DNA of 64,000 bases from Escherichia coli (GTDB lineage Bacteria > Pseudomonadota > Gammaproteobacteria > Enterobacterales > Enterobacteriaceae): NCBI RefSeq assembly GCF_017348835.2, contig NZ_CP071375.1. The stretch is one strand, 5' to 3'. Positions within the stretch are counted from its first letter, which is position 1; every line of letters starts with the position of its first letter. Below, one piece after another: positions 31,500 through 33,170 of the stretch. A program made the position numbers and the translations under genes. Under the pieces are notes generated by a model. That model was not told the origin of the DNA and searched no databases. It saw only the letters and a list, made by a program, of their open reading frames with translations.

Positions 31500-33170
31500 T
31501 TATTGAGGTTGAAAACAACTAAGCCCTGGGACACCTTTTTTATCACCACGTTCGTTAGGTGCTATCTTCCAGGAGTTTAGCCCCATGGTATAATTATCAA
31601 TTTTTTGATGCTGGTCTACCCCTAATCCATAATGGCCAAATTTCTGTTTAGTTTTTTTGAGCGTCTGTCCACATTTGAAGATATCTTCAGGTTTTGGTCT
31701 GAAAGCAGTAGTGTTATTAAAATAATTTTCATATACAGGTGTGGGTGCTATAGCATTGCTTCTAATTAGATGGAGAAGATGATCATCCATGTGTTGTTTA
31801 TGTTTTTTATTAAAAATATTTGCTAATTCCTCAGGATCAATTGGGTCTTTCATCTGATTAAATGGAACCTGCAAAGCACCGAGACAATAACATTGATTTT
31901 CTTCATTTCTTATTATTCCGTGATGACTGGTTAAAACTTTAGTTTCTGAGTTATAATTACAAACATCGAGCGTTTTAATTAAGTTATACGTATCACCGGC
32001 AGAGAGTTTATAATTTTCTAGTCGTGCAGTATAGTTACCATTAAAATTGATTTCATGATTTCCAGCCAGAACGATGACATTTTTATTAATACAGCTATCT
32101 TTATTACCCTCCATATTTCGCATAGAATTTAGCAAAGTAAGGATATATTTATCACCAAAAATAGTACTAAATCTATCGCCTGTATGATCCCCAAGGAAGA
32201 TACAAGGGGTTATCGCATCGTCCTTTAAAAAAACATGTTGATGCAACTCATTCAATATCATGTCTCTCGTATTTAATAAATTGTAGAGCAATTTATTATT
32301 TTTATGTATGTATGCAGATGAAGCCATGTCTTCGTGTTTTAATAATTCACATAATAAACTCCAACCCTTTTCCCTGATGCCTATATGCCCTGAAACGAGC
32401 AATGCATAAAGTACAGCGCCTACTCTTCCATCTGTATCGCCAAAATAAGCCGTGTTGGCATTTTGTGGGTTAATCACACCACACTGTTTATAAAAGTCTA
32501 TTTTAGAAAACACAGATTTAACATAGCTATCAAACTTATCCTTAGGAAACGTCTCTTTAGAGACATCCCAACGCCAGTCAGCTTTAAAATTACCGCTAAG
32601 AAGAGTAAAGAAATTTTCAGGTATGATAGAAAGCCCATTAACTTTATAAATTATGTCTGATTTATAAATTATGTCTGATTTATCTCCGGAGAAATTAATA
32701 AAATAATAACCATCCTTACACTCAATCTTAACTGTAATGGGAGACGATAATTTTATCACATGGTTATTGTCTGGTATAATTGTAAAGATAAACGTGTTAG
32801 TAGTATTATCGGCGAAACTATTATATTCTTGAATATCTATAGATGGCTCACTATTGTAAAACCATATTTTCTCCATCTGAAGACTATGTTCATTTACCCT
32901 CCAGTGACCATGTTGCAGGAAATAGATGATATTCAGGCCTAAATCGTTATCTATTTGCGAAAAGTCATTCAGCATATTAACTTCAACTGTGTTTGATCGA
33001 TATTTTTTATCAACCTTGCCATGGTGTTGATGACTGTTAACTTTATCTGAATGCTTATCTTGATGGCTTGAAGAGATGTGCTTAAATATATTTTGAAATA
33101 CTTTCATAAATAACCTGCAATATTTATAACTTGTTAGTAACAAAATAAATGATACATGTCTGAAAGACAT
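31500..33170 (-). CDS. yhiL: YhiL-like paralogue of YhiJ, 556 aa, intact here
   Basis: 556-aa ORF sharing blocks with YhiJ (YFGDTDGxVGAVLYAL, FLGDxTGDRFS, VLAGNHE, HHGI); contains an 18-bp tandem duplication. Confidence 0.75.
   Translation of the reverse strand: MSFRHVSFILLLTSYKYCRLFMKVFQNIFKHISSSHQDKHSDKVNSHQHHGKVDKKYRSNTVEVNMLNDFSQIDNDLGLNIIYFLQHGHWRVNEHSLQMEKIWFYNSEPSIDIQEYNSFADNTTNTFIFTIIPDNNHVIKLSSPITVKIECKDGYYFINFSGDKSDIIYKSDIIYKVNGLSIIPENFFTLLSGNFKADWRWDVSKETFPKDKFDSYVKSVFSKIDFYKQCGVINPQNANTAYFGDTDGRVGAVLYALLVSGHIGIREKGWSLLCELLKHEDMASSAYIHKNNKLLYNLLNTRDMILNELHQHVFLKDDAITPCIFLGDHTGDRFSTIFGDKYILTLLNSMRNMEGNKDSCINKNVIVLAGNHEINFNGNYTARLENYKLSAGDTYNLIKTLDVCNYNSETKVLTSHHGIIRNEENQCYCLGALQVPFNQMKDPIDPEELANIFNKKHKQHMDDHLLHLIRSNAIAPTPVYENYFNNTTAFRPKPEDIFKCGQTLKKTKQKFGHYGLGVDQHQKIDNYTMGLNSWKIAPNERGDKKGVPGLSCFQPQ

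Follow-up and report, generated by a model that had tools for sequence, protein, structure and literature searches.

An in-frame 18-bp tandem repeat present in one, two or three copies in the yhiL gene of Escherichia coli

The sequence analysed here (the window) is a stretch of 64,000 nt of an Escherichia coli genome (NCBI RefSeq assembly GCF_017348835.2, contig NZ_CP071375.1), and it carries an intact ORF on the minus strand (31500..33170) that is a member of the YhiJ/YhiL family and represents the gene yhiL. Two Pfam domains were recognized in the encoded protein, DUF6860 in the N-terminal part (216 bits, cut-off 27) and DUF4049 in the C-terminal part (530 bits, cut-off 25). The longest reading frame specifies 556 aa, and in PE164, where yhiL is identical, the RefSeq start is the Met at 33107, giving a protein of 535 aa. 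The features of the locus are as follows.

29616..31238, minus strand: yhiJ, a paralogue of yhiL (35% identity across 379 aa)
31500..33170, minus strand: yhiL, intact, longest ORF 556 aa, GC 33%
31512..32465, minus strand: DUF4049 domain (Pfam), C-terminal, aa 236-553 of the 556-aa ORF, with metallophosphatase-like motifs
32598..32987, minus strand: DUF6860 domain (Pfam), N-terminal, aa 62-191 of the 556-aa ORF, with the repeat inside it
32643..32660, coding on the minus strand: repeat copy 1, TTTATAAATTATGTCTGA on the plus strand, encoding SDIIYK
32661..32678, minus strand: repeat copy 2, identical to copy 1
32679..32683, minus strand: TTTAT, a partial third copy of 5 bp

The 18 bp at 32643-32660 and at 32661-32678 are both TTTATAAATTATGTCTGA, and TTTAT then follows at 32679-32683. 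TRF described the array as 2.3 copies of period 18 with 100% matches and a score of 82, and in a scan of the whole 64-kb window for periods of 10-59 it was the sole perfect tandem duplication. Reverse-complemented, the unit is TCAGACATAATTTATAAA and is translated as SDIIYK. The array is in frame within the ORF, and the 556-aa product has the sequence KSDIIYKSDIIYK starting at residue 164, which includes K-SDIIYK-SDIIYK. The perfect 18-bp tandem duplication at 32643-32678 and the in-frame 6-aa repeat on the minus strand of yhiL that had been described in a first-pass annotation were thus both confirmed, the former by TRF and the window scan and the latter by translation. No further occurrence of the 18-bp unit was found in the window, even when 3 mismatches were allowed. 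With the AT-rich composition of yhiL itself, the number of 18-bp self-matches expected by chance is about 7e-6 for any given period and about 4e-4 across periods 10-60, and the two-copy array is far above this expectation. Another, weak tandem repeat of 9 bp (TGTTGTTTA) lies within yhiL at 31792-31810 (2.1 copies, 90% matches) and probably arose by chance, the sequence being AT-rich. Promoter-like matches overlapping the array on the minus strand are to be expected at 32% GC, and were not counted as evidence.

In the window, as in K-12 and every other locus retrieved, yhiL lies between its paralogue yhiJ and yhiM, and the K-12 counterpart carries the RefSeq label 'YhiJ/YhiL family protein'. 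The same gene order (yhiJ < yhiL > yhiM) has been published, with H-NS listed at promoters of the yhiJ-yhiL block (PMC3946193). This block has a GC content of 30-40%, compared with about 54% in its flanks. There is no repeat at the equivalent site of yhiJ. The family is narrow, with 52 matches, mostly fragments, among 1.84 billion cluster representatives, and these come essentially from Escherichia, Shigella and E. albertii. Searches with PADLOC defence models gave 0 matches, the NCBIfam search returned only a far sub-threshold match to T4SS_Wip and no functional family, and a literature search found no paper mentioning DUF4049 or DUF6860. An ATG farther upstream lengthens the adjacent yhiM ORF (33391-34542, plus strand) to 383 aa, while RefSeq gives 350 aa (1,053 bp) in all genomes retrieved, and the longer form is probably merely the result of an upstream in-frame start. 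On the far side of yhiM, the window and K-12 have yhiN, while a pco copper-resistance element adjoins yhiM in LHM10-1, 6EVA and NT1W25; the neighbouring part is pcoE in LHM10-1 and 6EVA (about 5728-6164 of loci L004 and L005) and IS903B in NT1W25 (5097-6336 of locus L007).

The DUF4049 domains of both paralogues (yhiL, 31512-32465; yhiJ, 29616-31238) contain the motifs GDTDG, GDHTGDRF, GNHE and HHG. YhiJ matched Pfam Metallophos at 18.4 bits, below the cut-off of 21.5, and WipA_Phos at E = 0.034, while the NCBIfam match to T4SS_Wip, a Legionella effector phosphatase, had E = 4e-4 and was far below the cut-off of that family. For an AF2 model of DUF4049 (pLDDT 70-90), the highest-ranking fold in the PDB was that of ApaH (E about 0.01, TM about 0.3), and a sequence search of the PDB with the family profile gave 0 matches. 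These weak, sub-threshold matches suggest that DUF4049 may be a divergent metallophosphatase, and this likeness may serve the annotation of yhiJ and yhiL more than the repeat does.

To determine copy number across the species, 321 bp around the array were compared with 5,426 complete E. coli genomes, and the locus was found in 4,179 of them. Against the two-copy query, one-copy alleles can reach no more than 94.4% identity and three-copy alleles no more than 94.7%, so the 293 genomes that matched at 95% or above (278 at 99% or more and 15 at 95-99%) must carry two copies. This number is a lower bound, as it would not include two-copy arrays whose flanks are far more divergent, and evenly spaced samples of the rankings contained none of these. 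About 93% of the locus-bearing genomes have one copy, and almost all genomes outside the two-copy bands span exactly 303 of the 321 bp. Examples with one copy are K-12, OkiPb01700, A3024, RM9245 and SFE8, and examples with two are the window, PE164, VE-T9, NT1W25, 55989 and O104:H4. Synthetic and natural three-copy queries identified exactly six complete genomes with three perfect copies: LHM10-1, XJ5.2, CP52E, UTME-7, wlxctx60 and 6EVA. Counts obtained with the synthetic one- and three-copy queries were partly confounded by BLAST splitting 36-bp gaps into two joined pieces, and the numbers given here were therefore taken from the spans of the records and from ranges of identity that are attainable by a single state only. 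Four or more copies were seen neither in the complete genomes nor in JGI metagenomes, and a scan of the latter for at least three copies recovered one contig, with exactly three copies and the same flank type. The suggestion that this might be a site of variable length between strains was therefore correct, with one, two or three copies occurring at the same position; counting the repeats in orthologues, run as a check, did not reveal a fixed pair of diverged copies throughout. That such states could arise from errors of sequencing or assembly has a vanishingly small probability, and nothing was found in its support. The array, at 36-54 bp, is far below the length of a sequencing read, and its states are seen again and again, across hundreds of complete assemblies made independently and in the metagenome contig, so an artefact is effectively refuted.

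The single-copy state is ancestral, since it is found in the E. albertii orthologue (P0011, where the sequence is NTEIIYK), in all other cluster representatives and in about 93% of the E. coli genomes, and is also the form described by the Pfam profile. In the alignment to DUF6860, 130 residues of the window protein cover 124 profile positions, and the excess of 6 aa implies that the family consensus has one copy. All one-copy alleles examined read AAC-TTTAT-AAATTATGTCTGA-TTTAT-CTCC.

The two-copy alleles are of two kinds. Among the 5,426 complete genomes, the 321 bp of the window are matched at 100% only by PE164 and F2_81, both of them pig isolates, and this identity extends over the 24 kb from 20000 to 44000 of the window. 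The next-best genome reaches only 97.6% over this region, which indicates that the window belongs to a rare and fairly divergent E. coli lineage together with PE164 and F2_81. Two perfect copies are present in VE-T9 as well, but there the flanks are of another haplotype. The remaining genomes of the group at 99% or more, about 276, match at 99.7% in every case listed, and all nine that were sampled (NT1W25, CUVM3, ECL27977, DETEC-P1056, A8, 55989, O104:H4 2011C-3493, 504239 and O113:H21 FWSEC0010) have an imperfect array, TTTATAAGTTATGTCTGA followed by TTTATAAATTATGTCTGA, in which an A-to-G change alters Ile to Thr in one copy. The changed copy corresponds to copy 1 of the window. The genes of all nine are annotated as frameshifted and/or with an internal stop.

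These alleles bear on the age of the duplication. The first-pass annotation had interpreted it as a product of slippage or duplication, which is supported, and had also taken its perfection as a sign that it was recent, which for 36 bp is a weak argument. A divergence of about 1% predicts roughly 0.4 substitutions in an array of this length. Most old duplications of this size would hence show no mismatch, and perfection in a short repeat argues only weakly for a recent origin. The two-copy state is widespread, occurring in about 293 genomes, and is old enough to have diverged, the copies of the main group differing by a single A/G in all nine sampled.

Comparison of near-identical loci gives a more direct view of how copy number changes. 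RM9245 (one copy, G variant) and A8 (two copies, G and A) were aligned over 4,650 bp with 1 mismatch, an 18-bp gap and a 1-bp gap. RM9245 therefore shows a contraction from two copies to one, because duplication of a G copy would have given G and G. The G variant alone is not diagnostic of contraction, since single-copy G alleles also occur in diverged backgrounds (P0006 and P0008), and the argument is carried by the 4.65 kb of near-identity to A8. A one-unit step between two and three copies separates VE-T9, where both copies are perfect, from LHM10-1, which has three: their alignment of 5,386 bp contains 4 mismatches and one 18-bp gap. The alignments show a site that steps both up and down, by mutation in situ rather than by replacement of alleles.

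The repeat is embedded in a gene that is strongly mosaic. Between the window and the other alleles compared (L001-L016), overall divergence in yhiL is 3-10%, well above what is expected for E. coli core genes, and it is unevenly distributed: the central segment of about 1 kb that includes the array is almost identical, while there are up to about 30 substitutions per 100 bp in the 3' 400 bp or so and up to about 16 in the 5' 300 bp or so. The whole-gene allele of the window was found in only 2 genomes, whereas the array-bearing core is common to hundreds, and the 321-bp core of the window is 99.7-100% identical to alleles of unrelated strains. In VE-T9 and LHM10-1, the haplotype to the right of the array is that of one-copy haplotypes (Z0117EC0005, ST2350), and its difference from the window type sets in at a distance of 34 bp from the array, which suggests either that a second duplication occurred there or that a recombination breakpoint lies within those 34 bp. 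A second in-frame indel of 18 bp, near 31662 in the 3' part of yhiL, separates classes of alleles, the extra 18 bp being present in K-12, A3024 and NT1W25 and absent from the window, OkiPb01700 and LHM10-1; it has no tandem-repeat structure, and the sequence around it is very divergent.

Such mosaicism raises the question of whether the polymorphism is an old, stable indel, that is, one ancient duplication and one ancient triplication that homologous recombination alone has spread, slippage no longer taking place. Distant lineages do share the array-bearing core, the two copies of the common allele have diverged by one substitution, for which time was needed, and the single-copy G alleles in diverged backgrounds would fit as well. 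Against this, RM9245 and A8, like VE-T9 and LHM10-1, show hardly any difference over 4.6-5.4 kb beyond the 18-bp unit, and recombination would have had to place both ends of a tract, one on each side, no more than a few dozen bases from the array while leaving no other marker. A purely old indel is accordingly considered unlikely. Much the best-supported reading is that yhiL contains an in-frame, low-copy tandem-repeat polymorphism (a mini-VNTR) that was very probably made and changed by replication misalignment, with changes that are most likely neutral or nearly so.

Under replication misalignment, the ancestral allele would be a single 18-bp unit with TTTAT on either side as a 5-bp direct repeat, and a nascent strand misaligning between the two TTTATs would have duplicated 18 bp. 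Once there are two copies, 18-23 bp of homology would be available for further misalignment, by which a unit could be gained (2 to 3) or lost (2 to 1), with unequal recombination possibly contributing too. Recombination within the mosaic gene would then have carried the array between lineages. At the protein level, the hexapeptide SDIIYK would be gained or lost within DUF6860, with neither the frame nor expression being switched. Direct repeats of 5 bp bounding a unit are a classic substrate for replication slippage, and in E. coli, RecA-independent misalignment at short direct repeats gives rise to tandem duplications and deletions. The yhiL array resembles these microhomology-mediated events in having a unit bounded by TTTAT, an exact head-to-tail duplication and later gains or losses of one unit, but differs in that the case is known from sequence anatomy alone. 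Slippage fits this anatomy, and the fit is consistent rather than diagnostic: the one-copy gene contains 5 other 5-bp direct repeats at a spacing of 18 and 57 at spacings of 6-30, and as similar microhomologies are so common in yhiL, without known duplications, the presence of TTTAT does not by itself identify the mechanism.

Two other kinds of repeat locus invite comparison. VNTR loci are used for the MLVA typing of E. coli, and yhiL is similar in having a short tandem repeat that differs in copy number between strains, here within a gene. It differs in its range of only 1-3 copies, with about 93% of genomes having one, in its 18-bp unit and in the partial divergence of its copies, and it would be a poor typing marker; no paper tying yhiL to VNTR or MLVA was found in a literature search. 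Simple-sequence contingency loci are responsible for phase variation in Haemophilus, Neisseria and Campylobacter, and there too copy number is altered by strand slippage within coding regions, as is proposed for yhiL. However, the length of the unit in yhiL is divisible by three, which keeps the frame intact throughout, and copies are few. The array is not a phase-variable contingency locus, since 18 bp are 6 codons and there is no on/off switching, and the reading frame is open at each copy number: with one copy in SFE8 (an annotated CDS of 529 aa), with two (556 aa) and with three (562 aa). There was no evidence of hypermutability or switching in the array, given the maximum of 3 copies and the single copy seen in about 93%.

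The state of the gene itself is informative about the consequences of these changes. According to RefSeq, yhiL is frameshifted and/or has an internal stop in most of the strains examined (loci L001, L002, L006, L007, L009-L015 and L018-L021), including K-12 (frameshifted), 55989 and O104:H4, and it is intact in the window and PE164, VE-T9, LHM10-1, 6EVA and SFE8. It appears to be decaying repeatedly across E. coli. When the protein was modelled with AlphaFold2 on an alignment of 17 sequences, the narrowness of the family precluding a deep one, residues 1-176, which include the repeat, had pLDDT values below 50. Four features of yhiL make it most likely that a change in copy number is neutral or nearly neutral: its AT-rich composition, its location in a region associated with H-NS, its confinement to Escherichia and its existing pseudogene status in many strains. 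Near-neutrality is also the simplest reading of the distribution of alleles, as most two-copy alleles are found in pseudogenes and the gene can be intact at each of the three copy numbers.

Some room for selection is left by the finding that every perfect two- or three-copy array examined (window and PE164, VE-T9, LHM10-1, 6EVA) is in an intact gene. The number of SDIIYK units in DUF6860 might tune the activity or target recognition of an Escherichia-specific, phosphatase-like protein, so that selection maintains the variation, as it does in contingency loci or in surface proteins that vary; the extreme divergence of the gene ends between alleles could then reflect diversifying selection, and copy number has changed at least twice in situ. 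These points are outweighed by the narrow range of 1-3 copies and the predominance of one (about 93%), by a unit that is a multiple of 3 and hence cannot act as an on/off switch, by the pseudogene status of all nine sampled alleles of the main two-copy group and by the existence of an intact one-copy allele in SFE8. The family also has no match to defence systems or functional families (PADLOC, NCBIfam), and no literature on it was found. Tuning of this kind is judged very unlikely, and the chance that the number of SDIIYK units is a selected, tunable feature, for example by altering the length of a recognition element, is put slightly lower still. If true, it would explain why all of the perfect two- and three-copy arrays examined lie in intact genes.

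With near-neutral change by replication misalignment as the preferred reading, the array represents an ordinary and well-known kind of variation, of which it is a new example only, and it matters little in itself. Its copy-number forms are minor lineage markers. The rare lineage of PE164 and F2_81 can be recognized by the perfect two-copy form, a large group to which O104:H4 and 55989 belong by the G/A form, and six complete genomes by the presence of three copies. The yhiL array provides a clean natural example of a duplication bounded by microhomology that then steps up and down in a decaying gene.
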